The notes below the pieces were generated by a model. The model had not been told where the DNA came from, made no database searches, and saw only the letters and a list, made by a program, of their open reading frames with translations. A stretch of DNA of 63,991 nucleotides, filler included, from Barthelona sp. PAP020 (taxonomy: Eukaryota), in assembly GCA_040182905.1 (NCBI GenBank). It is 39 parts of 39 records of this genome, joined end to end, with 100 filler letters (N's around TTAATTAATTAA, not from the genome) between each part and the next. Parts side by side here need not be neighbours in the genome. Positions count along the whole stretch, not along the records: positions 39,277 to 40,783 come from JARQWU010000951.1; 38 more parts are not named here. One strand, written 5' to 3'. Both the position numbers and the translations under genes were made by a program. Shown here piece by piece: positions 3,628-56,015 of this stretch (position 1 is the stretch's first letter; every line of letters begins with the position of its first letter).

Positions 3628-3723
3628 ACCAAAACAGCAAAGATACCATGGAGTAATTTCCCCAACCCCAGTTAGTAAATATAAATTAAAGCCTTTAATT
3701 TTGCCCTTTCGTCTAACGTGAAA
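3628..3723 (-). repeat. tRNA-downstream modules C1+C2
   Basis: TTTCACGTTAGACGAAAGGGC...ACTAACTGGGGTTGGGG..., near-identical to 17860-17968. Confidence 0.9.
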
Positions 3724-3849: not shown

Positions 3850-4083
3850 TCACGAATAACAAAAATAATGATACTTTTATAAAATTAAGAAATCTAAATA
3901 GTTTAATAAAATGGACAATTTAACAATTTAAAAATAAATTCCAGACATCTTTAAGACAATAAATATCTAATTGTATTAAACAAATTACTGTTTTCTTATT
4001 TCCAGCTCAAAAAGCAAAGAGTATATTAGTGAATATAGGAGAACAATAATTATTTAGTTGATGATTTTTAAAAATTAATTAAT

Positions 4084-4380
4084 TTGGTCAAGTTTTGAAA
4101 CAAAATTATTAATTTTCAAAGAAAGAGCAACAAAGAAAACTCATTTCTTTAAATCGCAGCCATAGAAAACGTAAGGCTGCAATTGAATCTTGGTCATCAA
4201 GTATGAAAATTTTGAAAAATTATCCATCCCTTTTTTCTATATTTTTGCAAAACCAAAATTTTAAATTTTATATTTTACCTGGGAAAATCTAAAGTTTGCA
4301 ACAGATCAATTGGACCTCGAAAGCTTTTAACCAAATAAACACCATTCCTTATTATTCACTAATACACATCTTCTTGGCCT
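4084..4380 (-). repeat. Repeat family A, diverged near-full copy, 234 nt upstream of tRNA-Asn
   Basis: Aligns by eye along its length with 21707-22018. Confidence 0.85.
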
Positions 4381-4527
4381 AGAGTTGAAATGGATAGGTG
4401 AAGGCAAAGTGATTCATTGTAAAAATAATTCTTCGAAGGAATAGAAATAAAGACCTGTTATTTATTTATCATTTGAGATGCTGTTTTCAATTTTTGGGAA
4501 GTTTGGTATCATTAAAAAAAAAAATGA

Positions 4528-5423: not shown

Positions 5424-5523
5424 TACTTGGGCATCTGAATCCACGTGAGTTTTTTCCCAAACCTTAAGCTAACTCGTTTCGTTGTTCACTGAACAACTCA
5501 TACCTCATAAATATCTAATAAAT
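5424..5523 (+). repeat. Repeat family B copy
   Basis: TACTTGGGCATCTGAATCCACGTGAG...AATATCTAATAAA. Confidence 0.9.
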
Positions 5524-5737: not shown

Positions 5738-6679
5738 ATGAAAGTTTTATTAATTTATTACAGTACCACAGGAAATACCGATTTCATTGCGAAAGAAATC
5801 AGAAAAATCATGATAAAAAAAAATCATGAAGTTGACCTTTTCAATTTTAGGGCTGAAAATCGAAAAATTCTTCAAGGAAAATCCATTGATTATGAACTAT
5901 GGAAAAATTACGAATTATTTGGTTTTCTATCACCAACTTGGGGTTTTCAGCCTGTTGACTTTTTTGATAAATTTATTAAGTCAATTCCTGATGAAGTTTT
6001 CATTGAAAAATATTTCTTTAGTGTAGCGTTACATGCTGGAAACCCAGGTAGAACTAATAAAGACATCTTCTTTTCCATTATGAACAAAAATATGGGTTCT
6101 AAATTTGTAGGACAAACTCATGTTTTTGGACCTTCTAATTTTATTCAAGGAGGAAGACTGGAAGAAAATAGATATAAATATGTTTGGTCAAGGAAGCATT
6201 TCAGACATTTGCCTGATTTTGTGCAAAAAATATTTGAAAACATTGATAACAATAATATTATTGATGGAAAAATGGATGGTTTATTCAGTGGATTGTTTGG
6301 AAAAATTATTCCTAGAAGTCTGATGGGAGGTAGCATTAGATTTAGTCCTGAAACTTGTACTGGTTGTCAACGTTGTGTGAAATATTGTCCAACTCAAGCT
6401 ATTAAGTCAATTAAGAAAGACGAAAATGGTACTCTTATTATTGACTATGATGATAACATTTGCATTGGATGTAGTGGATGTGTGCAATATTGTCCCACTC
6501 ATTCTTTAAATATTGGTCGTTCTGTAGGCAAAGAGAGATATTATTTCAAGAAGAACATCGTTGTTGACACTGACTTCGATCCTTATTTTGTTAGAAATGA
6601 CCGTGCCAGTGAAATATTTGGCGATCTTGATACGAAAGAGGAAATTGCAAAGGAAAATGTTTCAGATGAAGAATTTTGA
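5738..6679 (+). CDS. EFR1-type flavodoxin / 2x[4Fe-4S] ferredoxin fusion
   Basis: N-terminal YYSTTGNT flavodoxin loop; CTGCQRCVKYCP and CIGCSGCVQYCP motifs. Confidence 0.9.
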   Translation: MKVLLIYYSTTGNTDFIAKEIRKIMIKKNHEVDLFNFRAENRKILQGKSIDYELWKNYELFGFLSPTWGFQPVDFFDKFIKSIPDEVFIEKYFFSVALHAGNPGRTNKDIFFSIMNKNMGSKFVGQTHVFGPSNFIQGGRLEENRYKYVWSRKHFRHLPDFVQKIFENIDNNNIIDGKMDGLFSGLFGKIIPRSLMGGSIRFSPETCTGCQRCVKYCPTQAIKSIKKDENGTLIIDYDDNICIGCSGCVQYCPTHSLNIGRSVGKERYYFKKNIVVDTDFDPYFVRNDRASEIFGDLDTKEEIAKENVSDEEF

Positions 6680-9002: not shown

Positions 9003-9100
9003 GCAGCCACTCATTTTCTGTGGCTGAGATTTAATGAAATGAGTTTTCTCTGATTACTTTTTCTTTGTAAATAAATATAGTTGTTTCACAACTTGACCAA
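9003..9100 (+). repeat. Repeat family A 3' end, 237 nt upstream of tRNA-Phe
   Basis: GCAGCCACTCATTTTCTGTGGCTG...CACAACTTGACCAA. Confidence 0.9.
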
Positions 9101-9337
9101 AATATTGAAATTGAATTAACTACAATCTTATTGTTTTTCAATATAATTAATTTTTTATTCATAAATAATTAATTTAAATAAAAATTTATTCTTAATTAAT
9201 ATTAAAATATAATATGATTAATAAAAATCTCTTTAATTTCCCTATCAAAATTTGAAATAACTCAGATGTCTAAACATAATAAATCAAAAACAATTCAACC
9301 CATTCATGTTGTTTCCAAACTTTAGCTTTTTTTCAAC

Positions 9338-9464: not shown

Positions 9465-9662
9465 TTCAACAATGGAGAAGACAATTCACGTTAGACGAAA
9501 GGGCAAAATTAAAGGCTTTAATTTATATTTAGGTGTGTTATTGAAATGAGTAGTTGGGAAAGCCTTGAATTTGAATCCTGGCTGTTTGAAATGACTTAGT
9601 TCCGATTGAAAGATTGGACGATATTGAATCCCTAAAAAAAAGAAATGACTTCAATAACTTTG
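9465..9662 (+). repeat. tRNA-downstream modules (TTCAACAAT stub, C1, body of C3)
   Basis: Matches 3675-3723, 13957-14132 and 17682-17827. Confidence 0.9.
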
Positions 9663-9897
9663 GATGGAAAATTTGATTAAGGAAATTGAGACAATGGTTG
9701 AAATTTTGGGAAAATTTCTTTTGTAATCTTTCAAGATTCTTTATCAGCCAGTAACATTAGATTCTTCTTTGTCTTAAGCTCAACTAGTTGTTTTATTATT
9801 TGATAAATTCTGAAATACGAGAAATTTTGCTTGATTCAAATTCTGGCGCATTTCTTCACGCTTTTCTTTTTCCCTCCTTGTGAAATGCCCGCTGCGC

Positions 9898-10153
9898 TTC
9901 ACAATAATACTAAATGTTTATAAAGACCTTTTTTGTTCTCGGTTAGAGTTTGGGGGTACTTGCAGCTGGGTCGTTTTGCATGGATGGTTCAGAACACTCT
10001 TAAAAAGAAAGAAATACTTTTGGTTTAGATGGGACGGGTCTCTAAATAAAAGTGTAATCCTATCCTTTGTCCCCCTTTTGATTCACTTTAAATGTCTCCA
10101 CTTACGTTCTCTTTGTAACACTTTGATATTCTTTGCTTTGTTGACCTGTTTTA
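9898..10153 (+). repeat. Module C4 copy
   Basis: TTCACAATAATACTAAATGTTTATAAAG...CGGTTAGAGTTTGGGGGTACTTGC; matches 21082-21184 and 44175-44574. Confidence 0.85.
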
Positions 10154-13524: not shown

Positions 13525-13956
13525 GAATTCATTGTTATGGTAATGAATTCTCATAAGGTTTTTGCTTCAAAATAAATGCAACCCATGTTCATTATCATTC
13601 TTTGTTGCGTGGACATTTTTTGCGGTGAAAAAAAATGAAAATTTCGTAAAAACGCAAAAAAAAAGCTATACTGATAACTAATGTCCTATATGTAGGTTAT
13701 ATATGTCTTCTTTATGAAAATGTTTGTAAAATCTTTTACCTTTTATTTTCATAATTTTTAAAGACTTTTATTTTTTATGTTAACCCATTACGTTGGGTTT
13801 GGTATAGTTAGAAGTTTTTTGATGGGATGTTCGACGCCAAAATGTTTTGGTATACACATACCATTTGGATAAAAAATTTTACTTTTCATTTTGTTATCCC
13901 TTGGATTTTTATTTTTACAAGCCTAAGTTCTTGATGTGCATGTAAATTCCAAGAAA

Positions 13957-14132
13957 TTCACGTTAGGTACAAGAAAAGGTATACGAAAGCTTTTATATAC
14001 GGTGTGTTATTGAAATGAGAAGTTGGGAAAGCCTTGAATTTGAATCCTGGCTGTTTGAAATGACTTAGTTCTGATTGAAAGATTGAACGATATTGAATCC
14101 CTAAAAAAAAAGAAATGACTTCAATAACTTTG
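13957..14132 (+). repeat. Module C3 copy
   Basis: TTCACGTTAGGTACAAGAAAAGGTATACG...GAATCCCTAAAA; matches 17682-17827 and 29263-29361. Confidence 0.9.
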
Positions 14133-17681: not shown

Positions 17682-17968
17682 GGGATTCAATATCGTCCAA
17701 TCTTTCAATCAGAACTAAGTCATTTCAAACAGCCAGGATTCAAATTCAAGGCTTTCCCAACTACTCATTTCAATAACACACCGTATATAAAAGCTTTCGT
17801 ATACTCTTTCTTGTACCTAACGTGAAATTTGTAAGCATATGCTATTGTTGTCGTGTGAATTCTGAATCGGTTGACCAAAACAGCAAAGATACCATGGAGT
17901 AATTTCCCCAACCCCAGTTAGTAAATATTAATTAAAGCCTTTAATTTTGCCCTTTCGTCTAACGTGAA
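17682..17968 (-). repeat. tRNA-downstream module stack C1-C2-(TTCACACGAC stub)-C3
   Basis: Three TTCA-headed junctions, at 17968, 17859 and 17826. Confidence 0.9.
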
Positions 17969-18085: not shown

Positions 18086-18349
18086 ATAAAGAAACGAAAA
18101 ATCTATGATATATAAAATAAAATGGTTAATGTTTCAAAATTATATGTTGATGACAGTTTTCTCTTTTTCAGATCCACAAAGAGCAAATCTTTTCTTTTCT
18201 TAAAACAATTTCTAATCATTACAAATAAAATTTATTGGAGCTGAAGTATTTTGTTAAATATGCCGTTTGTGCAGATTTAATTTTCTCTTTCAATTCAATC
18301 AACCATCATATAAACCTAATTTTTACAACGCCAAAACAAGAATTCTTGC

Positions 18350-18400
18350 ATTCTTTTTTATTCACTCATACCCACAGTGCTTCTTAGCTTGGAAATAATT
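18350..18400 (-). repeat. Repeat family A stub, about 265 nt upstream of tRNA-Ala
   Basis: TTCACTCATACCCACAGTGCTTCTTAGCTTGGAAATAATT. Confidence 0.8.
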
Positions 18401-18695
18401 AATTATTTCATTTTCAGTTTACTCTTTCAAAGATAAAAAGAATCAAGAAATGGCATATTTCCATGAAAACTTGAACATTATTCTTTGGAGGTGTTAGGAA
18501 AGCTTGCATTGAAATATATTTTCTAAGCACCTCATAAAAAGGCCCAACACAACAAAACAAAATACAAATTGAAGAAAAACAAACTATTTACAAATACATT
18601 ACTCAAATCCAAATCCAAATTTCAACCAAATTTTAAAACAACCAAAGATTAATTCGAACCATAACTATTACTCTAAACAACATGAAAGTGCTAAA

Positions 18696-21081: not shown

Positions 21082-21184
21082 CGACAATAATAATAAATGT
21101 TTATAAAGATCTTTATTGTTCTCGGTTAGAGTTTGGGGGTACTTGCAACTGAGTCGTTTTGCGTGGATGGTTCAGAACACTCTT
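21082..21184 (+). repeat. Module C4 copy
   Basis: CGACAATAATAATAAATGTTTATAAAGATC...GGTTCAGAACACTCTT. Confidence 0.9.
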
Positions 21185-21706
21185 TCATGATGCAAAACAG
21201 AAAATGATTATAAAAGCTTTTACAAGGATTATAGGATGAGAAGGTTGGCTAGTTAGTGTTTGTCAATTCTTGATCTGAGTTTAGTTCGTGAACTGAATGC
21301 CCTTTATAAAAAAAAAGAATCAACCTTTAGTTGATCTGCCATATTTAAAATTTTGATTTAATTTGATAACATATTCCAATTTTGAAATTCCAACTTGCTC
21401 AGAAATGGCGGGAAAGTTTTTCCTGCACCGGAAAACATTCTTTTCTCTTTTCCCGCAAAGTTCTTGCTCCAGGCTGAAACTTTGTAGGATTAATATCTGA
21501 TACTGGTTGATCTAGTGTAGGGAAACAAGCTAGCATATTGTGGGTTTTGCTTGACTCACACAAACGCATGCATGTTTATGGTTGAGACTGCGATTCTTCA
21601 CAGTTGAATGTGATTATTCTGTTCCTTCCCACGCATCAATTTATGAATTTTTTACATCGTTTCAAAGATAAAACAGAGTTAGTCTTTGCTACTTAATATC
21701 TTTAAG

Positions 21707-24456: not shown

Positions 24457-24684
24457 AAAGTTTAAACTTTACCTTAGAAAATCTAAAGTTTTTCAACAGA
24501 TCAATCGGGCCTCGAAAGCCTTTAACCAAATAAACACTATTCTTTTTTATTCACTTATACGCACAGTGCTTCTTGGCTTGGAAATAATTGGGCATCTGAA
24601 TCCACGTAAGTTTTTTCCCAAACCTTAAGCTAACTCGTTTCGTTGTTCATTGAACAACTCATACCTCATAAATATCTAATAAAA
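24457..24684. repeat. Family A (minus) abutting family B (plus)
   Basis: Junction GGAAATAA-TTGGGCATCTG near 24588. Confidence 0.9.
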
Positions 24685-28817: not shown

Positions 28818-29153
28818 GCAAAAAGATCTTTTAAAAATATTTTCTTTTTTTTGAAATTATTTGTAAATTCTTATATAGTTTAATTTCAGTTTTTAAAAAA
28901 TTGTAATGTGTTCATGAAGGAGTAATGTTAGTATTATAATTTAAATTATTAATAATGTTTGAGATATTTAGTTGTGTATCCGTTTTTATGTTCAAATATT
29001 TGATGTTTTGATGCTAAGAGAATTTTGATATTTAAAATATATGAAATCTTTTTATTTTTTGATAAAATTTGAATGACTGTAAAAAAATTCCATACAAAAA
29101 AAATTCATTTAATTTCCTTTTTTAAAATAAAAAGGTATTTGTTTTCTCCTGTA

Positions 29154-29244
29154 ACCAACGTGGTGTAATTAGTAGCACACTTGTCGTTTATTGAATTCAT
29201 TGCTTCGTTATTGAGGGGTCCTCGTGCAATTCGAGGCGTTGGTA
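29154..29244 (+). ncRNA. Atypical tRNA-like gene (91 nt), anticodon undetermined
   Basis: Perfect acceptor stem ACCAACG/CGTTGGT+A, D stem GTGT/GCAC, T stem CCTCG/CGAGG and T8 terminator; 36-nt irregular anticodon region. Confidence 0.75.
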
Positions 29245-29250
29245 TTTTTT

Positions 29251-29361
29251 TTCACTCGACATTTCACGTTAGGTACAAGAAAAGGTATACGAAAGCTTTT
29301 ATATACGGTGTGTTATTGAAATGAGTAGTTGGGAAAGCCTTGAATTTGAATCCTGGCTGTT
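29251..29361 (+). repeat. TTCACTCGACA stub plus module C3, directly after the tRNA-like gene
   Basis: Near-identical to the C4' head (40673) and to C3 (13957). Confidence 0.9.
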
Positions 29362-29778: not shown

Positions 29779-31017
29779 TTATTGCAAAGATATAGAATTA
29801 ACCCCTCTGGGAATCATACCACCAGAGTAATGACCACGTTTCTTTTTGGTTTTGGCTGCTTTCCAAGATTTTCCTCGTGTAGGTCTCATTTCCATTTCAG
29901 CTCTTTTATCAAATTCTGAAATCTTGTGGTCCCGTCTGAAATGATGCGTAAAATTGACGTCGTCAACATTGAATCTTGTCCTAAATTGTCCTGGTGCACG
30001 TTTTTTGTTGGGATTATATTTATTTGCTCTATCATCATCATTATGTCTATCATTAGCTTCTTTATTGAAGTTTTTCTTCTCAGACTCACTCTCTGATTCA
30101 CTCTCTGATTCTTCCTTTTCAGGCTCACTTTCAGAATCATCTTTTTCTTCTTTCTTCTCTTCTTCTTTTTCAGATTCGCTCTCAGATTCAGACTCAGATT
30201 CATTTTCGGACTCGGATTCAGATTCAGATTCAGATTCTTCCTTCTCTTCTTCCTTTTCAGATTCGCTTTCGGATTCGGATTCGGACTCAGACTCAGACTC
30301 TTCCTTTTCTTCTTCCTTTTCTGATTCACTTTCACTTTCGGATTCAGATGCAGACTCTTCCTTCTCTTCCTCCTTTTCTGATTCACTTTCGGATTCAGAC
30401 TCAGATTCAGACTCAGATTCTTCCTTCTCAGATTCAGACTCAGATTCTTCCTTCTCAGATTCAGACTCAGATTCTTCCTTCTCGGATTCCTTCTCTTCTT
30501 CCTTTTCTGATTCACTTTCACTTTCGGATTCGGACTCTGATTCAGATTCAGATTCAGATTCAGACTCTTCCTTCTTTTCAGATTCACTTTCGGATTCAGA
30601 CTCAGACTCAGATTCTTCCTTCTCGGATTCCTCAGATTCAGACTCTTCCTTTTCTTCTTCCTTTTCAGATTCACTTTCAGACTCAGATTCGGATTCAGAC
30701 TCTTCCTTCTCTTCCTCCTTTTCAGATTCACTTTCGGATTCAGACTCAGACTCAGATTCTTCCTTCTCGGATTCCTTCTCAGATTCATTTTCGGATTCTG
30801 ATTCTGATTCTGATTCTGATTCAGATTCAGACTCTTCCTTTTCTTCTTCCTTTTCAGATTCACTTTCAGACTCAGATTCGGATTCAGACTCTTCCTTCTC
30901 TTCTTCCTTTTCTGATTCACTTTCGGACTCGGATTCAGACTCAGATTCAGATTCAGATTCAGATTCAGATTCTTCCTTTTCTTCTTCCTTTTCACTTTCA
31001 GATTCAGACTCGGACTC
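29779..31017 (-). CDS. NOLC1: Nopp140/Srp40 nucleolar phosphoprotein (5' partial); this frame is missing from the ORF track
   Basis: (SE)n/EKEEEKEE repeats ending in [33 protein letters not shown], the SRP40 C-terminal domain. Confidence 0.9.
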
Positions 31018-31119
31018 ANNNNNNNNNNNNNNNNNNNNNNNNNNNNNNNNNNNNNNNNNNNNTTAATTAATTAANNNNNNNNNNNNNNNNNNNNNNNNNN
31101 NNNNNNNNNNNNNNNNNNG

Positions 31120-34304: not shown

Positions 34305-34679
34305 NNNNNNNNNNNNNNNNNNNNNNNNNNNNNNNNNNNNNNNNNNNNTTAATTAATTAANNNNNNNNNNNNNNNNNNNNNNNNNNNNNNNNNNNNNNNN
34401 NNNNTTTGTCACAAGCCCTTCAAAGTGATAACGAAATCTCAACAATGTCAGGCGACTTGAGTGATTTCATATAGCAATTGTAGTGTAAAGTGTTGTATTC
34501 TCTATTTTATCACAAATCTATGACAATATTTTGATCCAATGGAAAAAAAAAAAAAAAAAAATAAATAAATAAATAAACAACAATTTTTTTCAATTTAAAA
34601 GTTTCACATTTTTAGTTCAAGTGATTCAGTATGTTTTAAATCAATGCTGCAATCCAAACATCAAAAATGCATTGTTTTT

Positions 34680-35241
34680 TTTCCAAGCCAAAAGACACTG
34701 AGTGTCTAAGTGAACGAAGAAGAATTATTTCCAAGCCAAGAAGCACTGTGTGTATGAGTGAATTAAAAGAATACTGTTTATTTGGTTAAAGGCTTTCGAG
34801 GCCCGATTGATCTGTTGAACTATAGATTTTTTAAGGTAATGTGGAAGTTCCTGCTCAATGAACAAAATTTATTGGAGATATTAAGAGGTCATCAAATATC
34901 ACTTCCATTATTAATTGTTGCTTGACCACCTTTAGGTCCAATTCTTTAAGTTACTTGGGCATCTGAATCCACGTGAGTTTTTCCCAAACCTTAAGCTAAC
35001 TCGTTTCGTTGTTCACTGAACAACTCATACCTCAAAAATATCTAAGAAAGTTTAAACTTTAAAATTTTGCTTTTGCAAAAATCAAAAGAATGGGAATGGA
35101 AAATTTTTCCAAAATTTTCATACTTGATGATTAAGATTCAATTGCAGCCCCTCATTTTCTGTGGTTGAGATTTAATGAAATGAGTTTTTTCTGATTGCTT
35201 TCTCTTTGTAAATAAATATAGTTGTTTCACAACTAGACCAA
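34680..35241 (+). mobile_element. Family A copy with a duplicated head and family B inserted (34840-35045)
   Basis: A sequence is split at AAGGTAA/AGTTTAAAC by a B copy. Confidence 0.85.
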
Positions 35242-39337: not shown

Positions 39338-39470
39338 AGTTGGATATAAACTGTTCAGAATTTATTGTTGAAATTTATAAACATTTATTATTATTGTCGT
39401 GTGAAAAAGCTTTTATTAAATGTTTATTATTTTGTCGAGTGAATGAGCCAGTAGATGATGTGTTGTTGAA
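39338..39470 (-). repeat. Stack of four TTCA-headed module stubs downstream of tRNA-Glu
   Basis: TTCA at 39470, 39443, 39405 and 39372; the last three match the heads of C4', C4 and C7. Confidence 0.85.
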
Positions 39471-39507
39471 AGTTATTCAAATTTCCAAAGATATAATTGG
39501 TTTTTCC

Positions 39508-39520
39508 AAACTCGATCCTC
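39508..39520 (-). promoter_or_regulatory. Extra downstream B-box-like motif GAGGATCGAGTTT
   Basis: 28 nt 3' of tRNA-Glu; one mismatch to the other copies. Confidence 0.7.
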
Positions 39521-39548
39521 ACTCTTCTTTAATCTTTAATAAAACCAA

Positions 39549-39621
39549 CTCCGATACCGGGATTCGAACCCGGTTCTGCGGGGTGAAAACCCACTATCCT
39601 AACCAAGTAGACTATATCGGA
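39549..39621 (-). tRNA. tRNA-Glu(TTC)
   Basis: TCCGATA/TATCGGA acceptor stem, GTGGG-TTTTCAC-CCCGC anticodon arm, GGTTCGAATCC. Confidence 0.96.
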
Positions 39622-39801
39622 CATGAAAAAAAGCAAATAAATGCATTTGCATAAATGTTCACATACAACCAAATACTATTACTTTGATAGAATAACTTGC
39701 TATTGACAATGGTTATAAACATATTATATGTAGTTTATTTTGATGTAATTAGGTCTACACATATTCCAGCAAGTTAAGAAGAAAGAATGTTTATACTCGT
39801 A

Positions 39802-40124
39802 ATTATTTCCAGGCCAAGAAGCATTGTGCGTATGAGTGAATAAGAAAGAATAGTGTTTATTTGGTTAAAGGCTTTCGAGGCCCGATTGATCTGTTGAAAA
39901 ACTTTAGATTTTCTGAGGTAAAGTTCAAACTTTAAAATTTTGCTTTTGCAAAAATACAAAAAAATAGGAATGAAGAATTTCTCCAAAATTCTCCTAATTG
40001 ATCGTTCCAATTACATCTCAGTCCCTCAATTCCCCTCCTGGGATTTTGACTAAAATTTGCTAGAATGAGTTTTCTGAGTTTACTTTCTTTGTAAATAAAT
40101 ATAGTTGTTTCACAAATAGACCAA
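39802..40124 (+). repeat. Family A (subfamily A2), about 180 nt upstream of tRNA-Glu, inverted relative to the other loci
   Basis: A termini, with a variant middle shared with 55866-56015. Confidence 0.85.
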
Positions 40125-40294
40125 TAAAGGACAAATTTTAAGCAAAAAGATAATTTAACGTGTTTAAAATTTCTTCTTGTGATTGTTAAAGAAAAATTGC
40201 AGCAAAGAATCAAACTATTTGCAATAAGAACGGTTTAACTGTACAAAGTAGTAGGTTGGTACGGAATTGCAGGATTTTATCAAGGAAACCCATA

Positions 40295-40783
40295 GAGAAC
40301 AATCAAAAATTTACCAGTAGGAAAAAAGAAGGATTGGCATTCTTATATTCAGATAATCGCCCCATCCACACCTGAAGAATTTCTTTTTTTTAAAGAGTGC
40401 TCCAAACCATCCATGCAAAACGACTCAGTTGCAAGCACCACCAAACTCTAACCGAGAACAATAAAGATCTTTATAAACATTTATTATTATTGTTGTGTGA
40501 CAGCTCTATATCACTATTTTGTTTAAGTTTCGCCCTGGGAAAGAACCTTCCTTTTTTTTTATATAGGAGAGTTCTGAACCAATCTACGCACAACAGACCA
40601 GTGAAAAGTAACCCAAACTCTAACCTTGAACAGTAAAAGCTTTTATCAAATGTTTATTATTTTGTCGAGTGAATTTCGTCTAACGTGAAGTGTTCGTAGC
40701 AAAGCGGACGGATTTCACCCAAAAGACAAAATAAACATTGTTCTAGGTTCTATTCTTGCACTTCTGATTGTTAAATATGATCC
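40295..40783 (-). repeat. Module stack C6 - C1 stub - C4' - C4
   Basis: Segments match 43618-43710, 3700-3723, 43875-43972 and 21082-21184. Confidence 0.85.
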
Positions 40784-42382: not shown

Positions 42383-43465
42383 NNNNNNNNNNNNNNNNNN
42401 NNNNNNNNNNNNNNNNNNNNNNNNNNTTAATTAATTAANNNNNNNNNNNNNNNNNNNNNNNNNNNNNNNNNNNNNNNNNNNNAGCTGCAAAAATCGAGGA
42501 AGAAGATATCATATTGTATGGTCAAAAGTTAATAAATGAAAGAAAGGAAAAAGGATATGACACAAGAGATTTAGAGCGTCACTTAGCTGTCATTTCAAAC
42601 AAATGACCGTTTTATTTTTGTATCTTGTTTCTTGTTTGTATAGTAAAGGTAGATTTGATTTTGTTGTTATTTTGTGAAAAATTATCGTTTGTTCAACAGG
42701 TAGGATATGCGCTTTGTCCCTTTATACACAAACAATTAACTCTTTGTTGCAAATTGAAAATCGCTAACCAAGACTGAGTGTTGATTTTTCCTCTTTTTTA
42801 GAACTAGGCGACAATGCTTCAAAAAATTTAATGTCAAAAGTCTAGGTAAAAGAGGATGTTGTTGTTGCCAAAATGAAATACAGTGACCTAACATTTGACA
42901 TTTCATCTCCAGTTAGCACCAACAAGTGTTAGAAAGCTAATGTGATGAATCTTTGCATTCAAAGTGTCCATTTGATTTTTGAAAATATATCTTGAATTTC
43001 CAACCATGAACAATGGAGGTCTTTATAAGCATTTGTTATTCTTATTTGGTAAAAGAACTACACATGCTAATCAACTTCTTATCTTGACCGTATTCATAGC
43101 AAAGCGAACGAATTTCACCGAAAAAGACAACAATAAAATGAAAAGATTTTTCCAACATTTTCATAAATAAGACATGTATGACTCACGCAAAAGATATTAG
43201 ACGAGAAAGGAGCATCAAATGAAACGTCGAACAAAAGTAGGGAAAAGTCGAGAAACTAATCTCAAACACAGATAAGGCCAGCTCATATCCAACTTACTTC
43301 CAGAAGTTTTCAATTTAATCCTCGTGGTCACATTCCTTTTTTGCGGCAGATAACGTCCCAGAATCTCCTTCCTCGAAATTTTCTAATCATCGTACATCCC
43401 AACGTAATTGGTCAACAAAAAGAAATAAAAGTCTTTTAAAATTAATCAAACAAATGTGTTCAAGG

Positions 43466-43972
43466 TTTTTTGTTGCAATTTCTGATATTAATGGGTGTCT
43501 AAATTGAAAAGTTAGCAAAAACACGGAATCTTATGAATTCTAAGATTAAAGATACAAGAAGATAAAACAGGTCAACCAAGAATATTCAAGTGTTACCAGA
43601 GAACATACGTAGAGACGTGTTCGTAGCAAAGCGGACGGATTTCACGTAAAAGACAATATAAATGCGTTTAAGGTTCTATTCTTGCACTTATGATTGTTAA
43701 ATATGATCCAATACATATATAATAATTTATAATAGGAAATATTAACGTTAAATAAGCTATTAGTAAAGCAAAAATTAGTTTCCAATCAGAAATATCTTAA
43801 TTCGGAACACAATGAAAGAAAGTGAATTTATCTGACTGATAAATGAGGTCAAGTAAACAATATTCTAAATAGTTCTATATCACTATTTTGTTTAAGTTTC
43901 GCCCTGGGAAAGAACCTTCCTTTTTTTTTTATAGGAGAGTTCTGAACCAATCTACGCACAACAGACCAGTGA
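43466..43972 (-). repeat. C4' element interrupted by C6-containing sequence
   Basis: 43466-43617 matches 44414-44574; 43618-43710 matches 40690-40783; 43875-43972 matches 40507-40603. Confidence 0.8.
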
Positions 43973-44174
43973 NNNNNNNNNNNNNNNNNNNNNNNNNNNN
44001 NNNNNNNNNNNNNNNNTTAATTAATTAANNNNNNNNNNNNNNNNNNNNNNNNNNNNNNNNNNNNNNNNNNNNGATGGAGCTCTGATGTAAACTGTTACAT
44101 ACTTCCGTACAAGTATTGAAACCTGTACGAGTTGGATATGTTCAGATGTTGAAAATTTCGCTGTACCAGCTCAA

Positions 44175-44574
44175 AAATGTTTACAAAGATCTTTATTGTT
44201 CTCGATTAGAGTTTGGCGGTACTTACAACTGAGTCGTTTTGCGTGGATGGTTCAGAACACTCTTAAAAAAAAAAGAAATACTTTAGGTGTGGATGGGGCG
44301 ATTATCTAAATAAAAGTTAAATAATCTTTTCCCTTCTTATCAATAAATTGTGATTGTTCTTCTGTGCTAAAGGAAAGTATCACACTTTTCTTTAAACATT
44401 TGACTTGCTTTATATGTCTCCACTTTTGTTCTCTTTGTAACGCTTTGACATTTGTTGTTGACCTGTTTTATCTACTTGTATCCTTAATCATACGGTTCTC
44501 AAGATTCCGTGTTGTTGCTTGAGCTTTTTTCGATGTTGATGCCCATTAAGGTAAAAGATTGTAAAAAAAAAAAA
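44175..44574 (+). mobile_element. C4 element, ~400 bp, ending in A12 (SINE-like)
   Basis: 5' part matches 9898-10153; 3' part matches 43466-43617; A-tail at 44563-44574. Confidence 0.6.
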
Positions 44575-44721
44575 TAAACTACAAAAATATTTATGTTGTC
44601 TTCAGCATGAAATCCATTGGCTTTGTTACGAACTCAATTATCGACAATTTATATTTTTGATATCTAAAGAATTGCATTTCTTTCAAGATATCAAACAAGG
44701 TGGATGTAAGAACAAAAAAAG

Positions 44722-46801: not shown

Positions 46802-47142
46802 ATGAAGATTAGTTTATTTTTGTGCAGTATTTTTGCTATTTTTGTTGTTTCAATAGCGTCTGATGTTACTCATCTTCATTGTGTTGCTGATTCTACTGGT
46901 GTTATTAGTTTGGTTACAACCCCTTCTGCTAATGTCAAAGTCATCGCTTGGGCTACTTTTGAAGATACTCTTTTTACTGAAGGTTTTAGAAAATTGCATG
47001 TCCATATTATTGAAGGATCTGCTGCACCTAGAACTCAAATGTATTGTGCTGGTCAATTAGAAGGTTATCTTTCACAAGGACCAATTGATCAACATCGTGA
47101 AACTTTATGGACTTTAATGGATATTGATGCCAAGCGCCATAA
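46802..47142 (+). CDS. Phospholipase B-like protein, N-terminus (joins 53537-54998)
   Basis: Signal peptide MKISLFLCSIFAIFVVSIAS; MYCAGQLEGYLS; last ~99 nt are identical to the end of contig 53537-54999. Confidence 0.9.
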
Positions 47143-53536: not shown

Positions 53537-54998
53537 TGATCACCAGCAACACATTTGTTTGCCTTACCACACCAACCACATTTTTCATTAAGGAAACATT
53601 CATCTTGTGACAACTTGGGGCAAACAGTGGGGTCAAAGAAAGGAACCCAATCAAAAGTTTCCAATTGGGCTTTAGTGGGAATACCAGTCTTGGGATAATC
53701 AGCAAATTCAGGTCTAGTTAAATCAACCATGTCATAATGAGAATTACCACTACCAGTTGTGGGACGACCAATAGCTCTCATCCATTGATTTTCAGCATAT
53801 CTAGAAGAAGTATATTTGGTATCAAGACAACCAAAAGCTAAAGGAGTTTTTCTTAAATCGTAACGAGAGGCAATGGCAGAACCAGGATCATTTCTTTGAT
53901 CAGGATCAGTAACATCATTATAACGCATCAAATCTTCGAATTGTTTTTCCTTGTCAACATTAGGGGCTTGATGTTCAAAGATCCAATGACGAGAGCAATT
54001 GTAATAGTCCCAATATCCAGGATCATTGTGCTCTTTAGCCCATTCAGCAACCTTTTCAGGATATCCAGAACGATTAGAAATTTCAGGGAAATAAGGGATG
54101 TTATAAGAAGGCCAGTAACCCCAATCCAATAATTTATCTGTTAAATCATCATAAACAATTTTACCAGGGGTTTGTTCTAAAACATATAAAGTTTCGGCAG
54201 AAGGTTTTTTTCCATTGCTGAACTTCTTGAAGTCCACAATAACCCATTGATTATTATAAGTACCAGAGTTATACATGGAGAAAATATCGGCCCATTCCTT
54301 ACCAGAAGAAGCATATCTATTGGCAACAGTAACACGCATCCATTCTAAAACAGATTGAGGCTTGATGAACTTGAATAAAGAATCATTGAAAACACCAAAA
54401 GTAGTTTCAAGCATGGACATCTTTTGATCAGTAACATAGAAATCATCAAATGAATATAAAAGACCAGGATAAGATGAAAAAACAATCTTTTGAGTGGAAG
54501 TATGAGCAGCAGTTCCAATGGGGAAATCATATTCTTTGAGGAAACGATTCATGGCAGAATAATAATACCAAGCATCTTGTCCAATGAAAATGTCGGAATA
54601 ATCATCCAAAAGACGGACCAAACCGGAACAATGTTCAGCACCAGTGTGATCAGTGGTCTTGTTAATAATTCCAGCCAAATCAACGAGATCTCCAATAGCT
54701 TCATATTCCCAAAAATCAGCAAGTTCAAGTTTTCCACCAGCTTTTTGATAACCATCATGAAGTCCTAAGAATTGATTGTATGTCAAATCGACATGATACC
54801 AATATGTGCTCAAAGTACGATAATTTTTAGTGTTTTCAACAATGAATTCACGGTTAGTTTTAAGGAATTCATGCAACTTATCCCAGTTGATTGGTTCATT
54901 ATGGCGCTTGGCATCAATATCCATTAAAGTCCATAAAGTTTCACGATGTTGATCAATTGGTCCTTGTGAAAGATAACCTTCTAATTGACCAGCACAAT
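53537..54998 (-). CDS. Phospholipase B-like (PLBD, Ntn-hydrolase) with a C-terminal PSI-like domain
   Basis: HCSGL autocleavage site, FSSYPG, NSGTYNNQW, YWPSYNIP, MRYND; ends ECFLNEKCGWCGKANKCVAG. Confidence 0.92.
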
Positions 54999-55099: not shown

Positions 55100-55135
55100 A
55101 GTTGGATATAAACTGTTCAGAATTTATTGTTGAAA
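55100..55135 (-). repeat. Module C7 head
   Basis: TTTCAACAATAAATTCTGAACAGTTTATATCCAACT, identical to 39338-39373. Confidence 0.9.
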
Positions 55136-55147
55136 TTTCAGATTCAG

Positions 55148-55258: not shown

Positions 55259-55535
55259 ACTGAAAGTTATTTTTTACACATAATCAAACCAAAATAGTTT
55301 GATTAAAACTAATGGTTATATGGTAAATTTTAATTTTTAACCGACTTTTTTTAACATTTTTTTCCTTCTAATAAATAATTAATCTAAAATAACCAATAAA
55401 AATTAATAATAATCACAATGAAGTTGACTATAATATCTTTTTAGAAATTTTCTATTGTTAAATATTATTCATTTCAAATATTTAATTGAATGTTTTTAAA
55501 AAATCATTGAAAGAATAGATCCAATTATGAGATAA

Positions 55536-56015
55536 TTGGTCAAGTTGTGAAACAACTATATTTATTTACAAAGAAAAAGCAATCAGAAAAAACTCATTTC
55601 ATTAAATCTCAGCCACAGAAAATGAGTGGGTGCAATTGAATCTTAATCATCAAGAATGAAAATTTTGTAAAAATTTTCCATTCCCTTTTTTTTGTATTTT
55701 TGAAAAAGCAAAATATTAAAGTCTAAACTTTACCTTAGAAAATCTAAAGTTTTTCAACAGATCAATCATTGGGCCTTAAAAGCCTTTAACCAGACAAAAA
55801 CCATTCTTCTTTATTCACTCATACGCACAGTGCTTCTTGGCTTGGAAATAATTGCCATAAAATAAATTCAAAATACTCACTTTGATGAATTTTAGTCAGT
55901 ACCAAAACGGAGAATTAAAGGACTGAAATGTAACTTCGATGATCAAGTGGGAAAATTTGGTGAAAATTTCTTGTCCCTGTTCTTTGTATTTTTGCAAAAG
56001 CAAAATTTTAAAGTT
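55536..56015 (-). repeat. Full family A copy (55536-55853; 277 nt upstream of tRNA-Asp) plus a partial A2 copy
   Basis: Aligns with 21707-22018 and 39930-40080. Confidence 0.88.

Follow-up and report, generated by a model that had tools for sequence, protein, structure and literature searches.

Introduction

Among the retrotransposons of dictyostelids, the non-LTR element TRE3 inserts 40–150 bp and the LTR element Skipper-2 inserts 7–133 bp behind tRNA genes (PMC5006619, PMC5911963), and in D. discoideum an external B box is situated ~41 bp behind 66% of these genes (PMC3159450). TREs are described as forming tandems without entering each other (PMC5391098), and a 2018 review confines insertion downstream of tRNA genes to dictyostelids (PMC5911963). 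Dada DNA transposons are reported to use tRNA genes as safe targets, at conserved sequences of small-RNA genes and with duplications of 6–7 bp (PMC3706591). In the literature covered, which consists of main texts and abstracts with few subscription papers, we found no Helitron-like family targeted behind tRNA genes, the nearest case being one cluster of tRNA-Cys genes in Arabidopsis that contains a putative Helitron (PMC10701932).

Stacks of truncated termini have been described for Helitron-like elements of the Helitron2 type (HLE2), which begin with T and carry asymmetric repeats, the 5' repeat lying 0–2 bp from the end and its 3' partner 20–30 bp inside (PMC3627910). The related HINE/DINE-1 elements have 2–5 terminal Ts that vary between copies and a palindrome beside the 5' repeat (PMC4067079). 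In Fusarium, the Helitron2 element FoHeli forms stacks of short 5' termini of 31, 65, 73 and 85 bp by self-insertion (PMC5148889), double left termini are reported for an HLE2 of Xenopus (PMC11417382), and Paramecium Helitrons have acquired a bias in site and orientation, in this case at telomeres (PMC13085455). Self-insertion stacks and insertion behind tRNA genes are each already known. What appears to be undescribed is their joint occurrence in non-coding elements that carry asymmetric inverted repeats, together with an external B-box-like motif and in a host outside the dictyostelids.

The window and its host

The window analysed here is the whole stretch of 63,991 nt, which consists of 39 contigs of ~1.2–1.7 kb (all <1.8 kb), sorted by length and separated by N-padded spacers, and every count given below is limited to these 39 short contigs. 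It is AT-rich, and its genes are eukaryotic and mostly uninterrupted, encoding WD40 proteins, kinases, CCT, Prp18, RRP40 and a flavodoxin-ferredoxin protein as identified with Pfam. The last of these (5738–6679) is an intronless flavodoxin + 2x[4Fe-4S] protein of a kind common in anaerobes. Two identical stretches of 100 nt (47043–47142 and 54899–54998) are found on contigs that both carry phospholipase B sequence, and this identity is likely to be an assembly overlap of one gene.

A fragment of CCT4 has one identical match, a transcriptome protein, and shows 52–60% identity to the other 119 matches listed. In a tree built from 31 of the 120 proteins listed, the named rows of which include no amoebozoan, it groups with Barthelona sp. 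PCE with support of 99/96, under a long-branch warning. In contrast to the dictyostelid systems, the present host is not close to any named protein match and groups with Barthelona, and these sequence comparisons indicate that it is likely to be a metamonad. The main text of a paper on this group mentions neither Helitrons nor tRNA genes (PMC11316075).

A stack of truncated heads behind tRNA-Glu

The stack lies on the minus strand downstream of tRNA-Glu(TTC), the landmark for landing at this locus (39621–39549; ARAGORN, Rfam 59.4 bits), and past an external B-box-like motif, GAGGATCGAGT (39510–39520, minus strand), the core of which is located 31 nt 3' of the gene. TTCA starts at 39470, 39443, 39405 and 39372, with the spacings of 27, 38 and 33 nt that an earlier note on this DNA had given, and places the heads 79–177 nt 3' of the tRNA. 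Read away from the gene, stub 1 (39444–39470, 27 nt) is a single-copy head of the TTTCAACAA type, for which no relative was found within the window. Stub 2 (39406–39443) comprises the first 38 nt of a family that we term E4 (C4' in the earlier note) and is broken inside the subterminal palindrome. Stub 3 (39373–39405) comprises the first 32 nt of E3 (C4) and one T of the next head, its break position being that of the E3 variant at tRNA-Ala. The outermost unit, E5 (C7; 39277–39372), spans 96 nt until it is cut by the contig end and is likely to be the latest insertion there. All four units are on the minus strand.

The proposal that three of the four units are heads of longer repeats is borne out by matches reaching 40674, 40500 and 21082, and 55138: unit 2 matches 40635–40674 (40 nt, 97.5%), unit 3 matches 40470–40500 (31 nt, 96.8%) and 21082–21107 (26 nt, 100%), and unit 4 matches 55100–55138 (39 nt, 100%). 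Units 2 and 3 diverge from their uninterrupted relatives within 0–1 nt of the next TTCA, as expected if the C4' and C4 heads are cut where the following head begins. We note that the E3 copy at 40500 reads GTCA, and that the 21082 copy begins at a contig edge, where its first bases are missing. The start TTTCAACAA is common to unit 1, unit 4 (E5) and 9464; this 9-mer occurs ten times in the window, four of which are such heads. The other stacks named in the earlier note were also found in place, but the unit length of 27–38 nt does not generalise, with breaks elsewhere at 7, 11, 16, 20, 21, 102, ~108, 172 and ~265 nt. An ORF of 104 codons on the plus strand (39340–39654) spans both the stack and the tRNA gene; it has no Pfam match and is taken as chance.

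TTCA as a boundary of repeat families

At least four TTCA within 102 nt are found in 200 of 5567 windows, which is near chance, and TTCA is not enriched behind tRNAs, where 952 nt contain 15 TTCA and 14 TGAA. The evidence therefore resides in the repeat boundaries, rather than in the 4-mer. In the five families represented by at least two headed copies (E1–E5), identity begins 0–4 nt before the first T of TTCA in all 16 copy pairs, rising from 23% before the boundary to 98% after it, and the view of (T)TTCA as a family boundary is thereby upheld. When all BLAST alignment ends are taken without bias, TTCA is present at 25 of 84 ends compared with a background of 20.6% (p 0.03), a modest enrichment because many of these ends mirror contig ends or fading alignments, and we rely on the per-family boundary test instead. 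The resident sequence can be read at five junctions, and the incoming head contributes 2–3 Ts at four of them and a minimum of one T at the remaining one. P-nucleotides were dropped as a source of these Ts, which are found also where the resident lacks a terminal A-run.

The E elements are non-coding and ~420–480 nt in length. With the first 5 nt removed and 200 shuffles per comparison, the similarities E4–E3, E4–E8, E3–E8 and E2–E8 beat all shuffles, those of E3–E2 (3/200), E2–E1 (2/200) and E4–E1 (5/200) are weaker, and E5 remains at shuffle level against every other family. The families were previously considered otherwise dissimilar, a description that applies to E5 only, since E2, E3, E4 and E8 are related to each other and E1 weakly so. 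A palindrome at about +25 to +40 is common to E1–E4 and E8, and an A8–10 tract at 110–155 is common to E2, E3, E4 and E8, while the copy at 9485 is a chimera with an E1 head on an E2 body.

An exact scan of metagenome contigs with the E1 head gave 0 matches, as did an exact scan of viral contigs with the far end of E4.

Evidence for nested insertion

Insertion of the elements into one another predicts that the remainder of an interrupted resident reappears behind the far end of the newcomer. The Glu contig ends before this point, but such remainders are present at three other loci. On the minus strand, E4 runs from position 70 to its far end (43617–43972) and is followed by an E3-like body from position ~260 (76%, 0/200 shuffles), which belongs to an older E3/E4-type remainder with its own far end at 43090 (43090–43616, minus strand; 76% to E3 ~260–420). 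Within this older remainder, ~300 nt of extra sequence (43160–43466), partly shared with 13678–13797 and 28843–28905, are possibly a further insertion. Behind tRNA-Phe, the stack on the plus strand (9465–10153) consists of a 20-nt stub, the E1/E2 chimera from 9485 to ~9900–9906 and an E3-type remainder, such that E3 continues from position ~15 after the E2 end (9907 onward; 83%, 0/200 shuffles). The third case (44073–44635, plus strand) has a putative E5-type far end extending to ~44175, after which E3 resumes from position ~21 (44176 onward; 89%, 0/200 shuffles) and reaches its far end.

A different arrangement is observed on the minus strand between 40783 and 40330. Here an E4-type far end (40690–40783, inverted head copy at ~40714–40737) is joined without a gap to an E1 stub of 16 nt (40674–40689), forming an exact tail-to-head junction at 40690/40689. 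The stub is followed by the first 172 nt of E4 (40502–40673; 98% over 103 nt to 43871–43972) and by an E3 copy inserted at E4 position 172 (40330–40501). This E3 copy is recognisable for 172 nt and then fades, leaving a borderline trace of the body and no clear remainder. Because E4 is found both before and after E1 between 40783 and 40502, module order is not fixed, as it would be in a single fixed composite. The stack at Ala (17682–17968, minus strand) is composed of 102 nt of E1, a 7-nt piece, 32 nt of an E3 variant and E2 up to the contig end, and at 21082–21350 (plus strand) an E3 of ~108 nt is interrupted at 21185 by its relative E8.

At Glu, Ala, Asn, Asp and 29251, the last element is cut by the end of the contig. 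Both junctions are available at Phe only, where the flanks are compatible with outcomes between the loss of 2 nt and the duplication of 4 nt, according to the position assigned to the E2 end. Target-site duplications, which the earlier note had considered possible, would thus not exceed 4 nt at the one locus with both junctions. Resident elements are broken at 7, 11, 16, 20, 21, 27, 32, 32, 38, 102, ~108, 172 and ~265 nt, and nine of these 13 breaks fall within the initial 40 nt, a distribution that rejects landing at uniform density along the element. Simulated random landing in a window of 7–190 nt places 40–75% of gaps at 40 nt or less, a range that overlaps the observed 9/13, so that tethering to the tRNA is indistinguishable from a preference for the resident head. 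A stack of four heads whose gaps all measure 25–40 nt arises in at most 0.16% of simulations, a figure to be read in the light of this stack having been picked after the fact. Taken together, we consider it very probable that the stacks arose by nested insertion.

Insertion sites behind tRNA genes

The core of the external motif, GGATCGAGT, occurs five times in the window, each time 27–31 nt behind one of the five standard tRNAs, which are also all that Rfam finds in the window at its gathering score. This 9-mer is present nowhere else in the window, where 0.16 occurrences would be expected. From its sequence, the motif resembles a B box and may be described as external B-box-like. Its presence behind five of five tRNAs is solid whatever the class of the elements. 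A search of metagenomes for a B box combined with the external motif returned three loci of 60–70% GC, which are unrelated.

At all six tRNA or tRNA-like genes, the first head is encountered 7–79 nt downstream, and at four of these genes at 44–55 nt, including an E1 head 55 nt behind tRNA-Asn (3628–3722, minus strand) and an E5 head 52 nt behind tRNA-Asp (55100–55134, minus strand), both of which are cut by the contig end. Heads span 7–186 nt from the tRNA overall, a range broader than the narrow insertion window previously envisaged. All 14 heads listed are on the strand of the tRNA, and 11 of them are backed by a second copy. The sixth gene (29154–29244, plus strand) was detected with relaxed ARAGORN, having been called neither by standard ARAGORN nor by Rfam. 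It has a 19-nt insert, an unusual T-loop, a weak anticodon stem and a cloverleaf fold of z -1.67, and no external B box follows it; the gene may represent a tRNA that contains an intron or has decayed. Directly behind its T-run, an 11-nt E4 stub is followed by E2 (29251–29361, plus strand).

E elements are present on all six contigs with tRNA or tRNA-like genes compared with four of the 33 others (Fisher 6e-5), a co-occurrence that is inflated because the contigs in the window are the smallest, repeat-rich ones, which does not account for the common orientation and distance. Three of these four others begin inside an element, and the fourth carries an E2 copy with no tRNA gene in view (13957–14132, plus strand); 128 nt before its head lies a strong isolated B-box-like site at 13829 (13.4 bits; within 13774–13850), which adjoins decayed E-type sequence. 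On balance, active targeting of the elements to tRNA genes is probable.

Asymmetric ends of the E elements

The E3/E4-type far end is represented by four copies (40690, 43617, 43090 and 44635), which are alike up to one point and then differ. The length of E4, ~426 nt, follows from the 103-nt overlap at 98% identity, E3 has ~480 nt and the complete element at Phe ~420 nt. Read inward, an inverted copy of the head starts 22–26 nt inside the far end, giving rise to asymmetric inverted repeats. These are long and imperfect (about 25–35 nt with gaps), and significant in four of six far ends (0–2 of 300 shuffles). The inverted copy at 40690 matches the head of its own family, E4, in a manner equalled by 1/300 shuffles, and the putative E5 end at 44175 matches the E5 head with 0/300; this end is assigned to E5 by the repeat only, as the E5 head is not linked to it on one contig. 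For the older copy at 43090 the repeat was scored against the E3 head (0/300) and for 43617 against the E3 or E1 head (2/300), whereas it is weak in E2 (22/300) and absent in the E3 copy at 44635 (81/300). Among 1386 windows ending in TGAA, the E3/E4 ends rank 5–14 for the inverted copy, and the E5 end ties for first, after its self match, among 1404 windows.

Terminal secondary structure is less consistent. A 3' hairpin is significant in E2 only (z -3.0 and -3.2; 1–2 of 200 shuffles) and no better than shuffles, on either strand, in the four E3/E4 ends and E5, while none of the six heads has a significant 5' hairpin. Internal complementary regions were not detected in E3/E4, with nine of nine tests at shuffle level. 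The far ends read GAACAC, GAATAC and GAACTC. The resident breaks are TTT^T, AAA^G, AAA^G, ACA^A, AAC^T and TTT^A, and one of the six far-end flanks begins with T.

The short motifs at the far end also include one that would not be expected of Helitrons, namely an A box at +8. The A-box pattern has three exact matches in the window, of which two start 8 nt inside E4 far ends (40697–40707, plus strand, for the end at 40690) and the third is tRNA-Asp; with one mismatch allowed, the older copy of E4 as well as E2 and E5 also match in their far ends. With a matrix derived from the window's own tRNAs, far-end A boxes rank 7, 33, 34, 52 and 170 among 113,508 positions, and the decayed E3 end ranks 2942. 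A B-box-like stretch 49–50 nt past the A box in E4 is weak (6.5 bits) and not clear in E2. The ends of a second repeat family, U, fit the A-box pattern as well, so that GC-rich terminal hairpins may account for some of the signal.

Comparison with known elements and a model for the stacks

The end geometry of the E elements resembles that of HLE2, for which the 5' repeat is placed 0–4 nt from the end and its partner 20–30 bp inside (38–60 bp in HINE): here the partner begins 22–26 nt inside, and the element starts with a variable run of 2–3 Ts that belong to it. Like HINE, DINE-1 and FoHeli, the E elements are non-coding, measure a few hundred bases, show no long duplication at the one locus with both junctions and form stacked 5' termini by self-insertion, and their short palindrome at ~+25 to +40 recalls the one beside the 5' repeat of HINE/DINE-1. 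The two differ in that the T-T (or T-C) target of HLE2 is not respected, the E repeat is longer and less perfect than the 8–16 nt of HLE2, the terminal hairpins are weak, and no autonomous partner was seen among the scanned ORFs. Furthermore, the E elements have a strong position and orientation bias behind tRNA genes. We suggest that they work like non-autonomous HLE2 without filing them as such, because the T-T target rule does not hold and RepHel was not seen. Helitron1, with 5' TC, a 3' hairpin followed by CTRR and an A-T target, was rejected on the sequence of the far ends.

With regard to the site of insertion, the elements resemble TRE3 and Skipper-2 in having a landing window behind the tRNA (here 7–186 nt) and an external B box (here 27–31 nt behind five of five genes). 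As described in the sources cited, however, those are coding retrotransposons with poly(A) (APE-RT ORFs) or LTRs (gag-pol), whereas the E elements are non-coding. Dada is similar as a DNA transposon that uses tRNA genes as targets (PMC3706591), yet the E elements are found at variable distances behind intact genes.

In the model that we propose, a transposase encoded elsewhere would read the two asymmetric ends and mobilise the E elements in trans, while being tethered to the TFIIIC/Pol III complex on the tRNA gene, probably with the aid of the external B box. Each newcomer would land in or beside the resident head, such that the first 7–40 nt of the resident stay near the tRNA and the remainder is pushed beyond the newcomer. 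The order of arrival would then run from the tRNA outward, at Glu from stub 1 through E4 and E3 to E5, with the caveat from the Fusarium model that a stub may be carried along by the element behind it, in which case some stubs need not represent an event at that tRNA. Neither a transposase or reverse transcriptase nor a recombinase, RepHel or other mobilising protein was identified with Pfam among the 28 and 13 ORFs of the window that were scanned; two ORFs near the repeats returned nothing relevant in Atlas (scores <0.9). One machinery for all the families, as first proposed, is plausible. The evidence leans slightly towards a rolling-circle class for the E elements, and the full reading of the stacks as tRNA-targeted non-autonomous Helitron-like elements, the best of those considered, appears evenly balanced.

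Alternative explanations

In tRNA-derived SINEs, the 5' end is followed by internal A and B boxes spaced as in tRNAs. The E elements resemble such SINEs in the A box at +8, the B-box-like stretch ~50 nt further on and the short A run at the other end, and could be SINE-like retroelements transcribed from the far end towards the tRNA, in which case the TTCA heads would be 3' tails (..TGAA with 2–3 A), insertion would proceed by target-primed reverse transcription via a TRE3-like tRNA-targeting non-LTR partner, and the stubs would result from nesting or 5' truncation. We regard this as quite unlikely, although A boxes are present at the far ends of E4, E2 and E5, E4 and E2 reach the first T4 run on the far-end strand at 270 and 193 nt, respectively, and the known cases of targeting 3' of tRNAs involve retrotransposons, according to the review cited above (PMC5911963). 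The T4-free stretch has a background chance of 7–12%, and T8–T10 and several T4 runs precede the 3' end in E2, E3 and E4; as T4–T5 is the apparent terminator behind four of six tRNA or tRNA-like genes, a full-length Pol III transcript is unlikely. Nor did three far ends scanned with Rfam give a credible tRNA match, and an inverted copy of the 3' end, which this reading leaves unexplained, lies between the two boxes. There is no poly(A) beyond the 2–3 A of the tail, no non-LTR partner in the window and no long duplication at Phe, and TRE3, as described, is oriented as the tRNA, with TREs forming tandems rather than nests. Also unlikely is a non-autonomous element of another DNA-level system with asymmetric subterminal repeats (a tyrosine or serine recombinase, or an undescribed transposase), combined with the same nesting and tethering. 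This would accommodate the departures from the Helitron2 target and hairpins, and DIRS elements do have inverted repeats with a right extension of 9–75 bp, an NTT start and no duplication (PMC3266345), of which NTT at the head, the extended repeats and, at Phe, the lack of a long duplication are shared by the E elements. DIRS1, however, depends on internal complementary regions, which are at shuffle level in E3/E4, and the E elements have neither RT/YR ORFs nor NTT at the far-end flanks, such that a DIRS1-like element was rejected. Self-insertion is also known for DIRS-1. The symmetric ends of a MITE derived from a DDE transposon are excluded by the 24-nt extension past the inner repeat, which is conserved in four copies with different flanks, and an LTR element was rejected as a TG start combined with a CA end is found on neither strand, in addition to the E elements being non-coding and 420–480 nt long.

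The stacks may instead be one composite repeat, or neighbours trimmed by deletions at an active terminus, without a special landing site and with tRNA islands merely tolerating repeats. Consistent with this, the order E4–E3 is seen at two loci and the order E3–E2 likewise at two, with no young pair reversed; one stack (E3 copy 40330) has no clear remainder, the E1/E2 chimera at 9485 shows recombination between relatives, and the U family also clusters near tRNAs (5/9 contigs, p 0.001). Yet an interrupted element resumes behind three far ends, one and the same pair is broken at 38 in one case and at 172 in another, E4 flanks E1 on either side, and a single orientation is maintained at six of six tRNA loci with the first heads at 44–55 nt in four, which makes this reading very unlikely. 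We consider it extremely unlikely that the stacks are an artefact of short-read assembly across repeats, even with all contigs shorter than 1.8 kb and five of six tRNA contigs ending inside an E element, since a single read is much longer than the stubs, which are anchored in the unique flank of the tRNA gene, the pattern recurs at independent loci, and the junctions share just 0–1 nt, presumably too little for joining graph paths.

In a tentative extension of the Helitron-like reading, to which we assign a low probability, a rolling-circle DNA lineage in a metamonad would integrate under Pol III guidance via a host external B box of an origin independent of that in Dictyostelium, and the A/B-box promoter that its non-autonomous copies carry at the far end would produce an inward RNA of 190–270 nt, bases 22–50 of which match the head of the same element and could serve as a guide, tether or silencing signal. 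If the tRNA-targeted reading proposed above is correct, an external B box and elements landing behind it coexist in a distant protist, the mover being a DNA rolling-circle element, and the convergence on Pol III 'safe harbours' would extend to a third element class. The function of the external B box would then become testable by comparison, and the stacks date the E families relative to one another.

Other repeats in the window

The U repeat is a non-coding sequence of ~320 nt found at 39801–40125 (plus strand), 55535–55853, 9003–9111, 4072–4383 and 18349–18420, as well as on four contigs without a tRNA. It is located 180–276 nt 5' of all five standard tRNA genes (180 nt at Glu), and five of nine U contigs carry a tRNA (p 0.001). 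U starts with AATTATTTCC and has a 6-bp hairpin near the other end (z -2.1 to -2.5), which is 81.5% paired and shows no covariation or compensatory change; its 5' 45 nt are duplicated at 34677–34725. U may be a second Helitron-like family that favours the 5' side.

The W repeat (~200 nt; 34840–35046, 1345–1527, 5424–5522 and 24585–24684) bears a perfect 8-bp hairpin ~20 nt before an end that reads CTAATAAA. At 34840 a W copy is embedded in U, and at 24590 a truncated W adjoins U, indicating that U and W also nest. An ORF at 275–1108 has no Pfam match, and its nearest Atlas clusters are TFIIF-alpha (score 0.87), which we treat as a lead only. A further ORF, at 29886–31018, is a low-complexity repeat with units of 6, 12 and ~60 nt.
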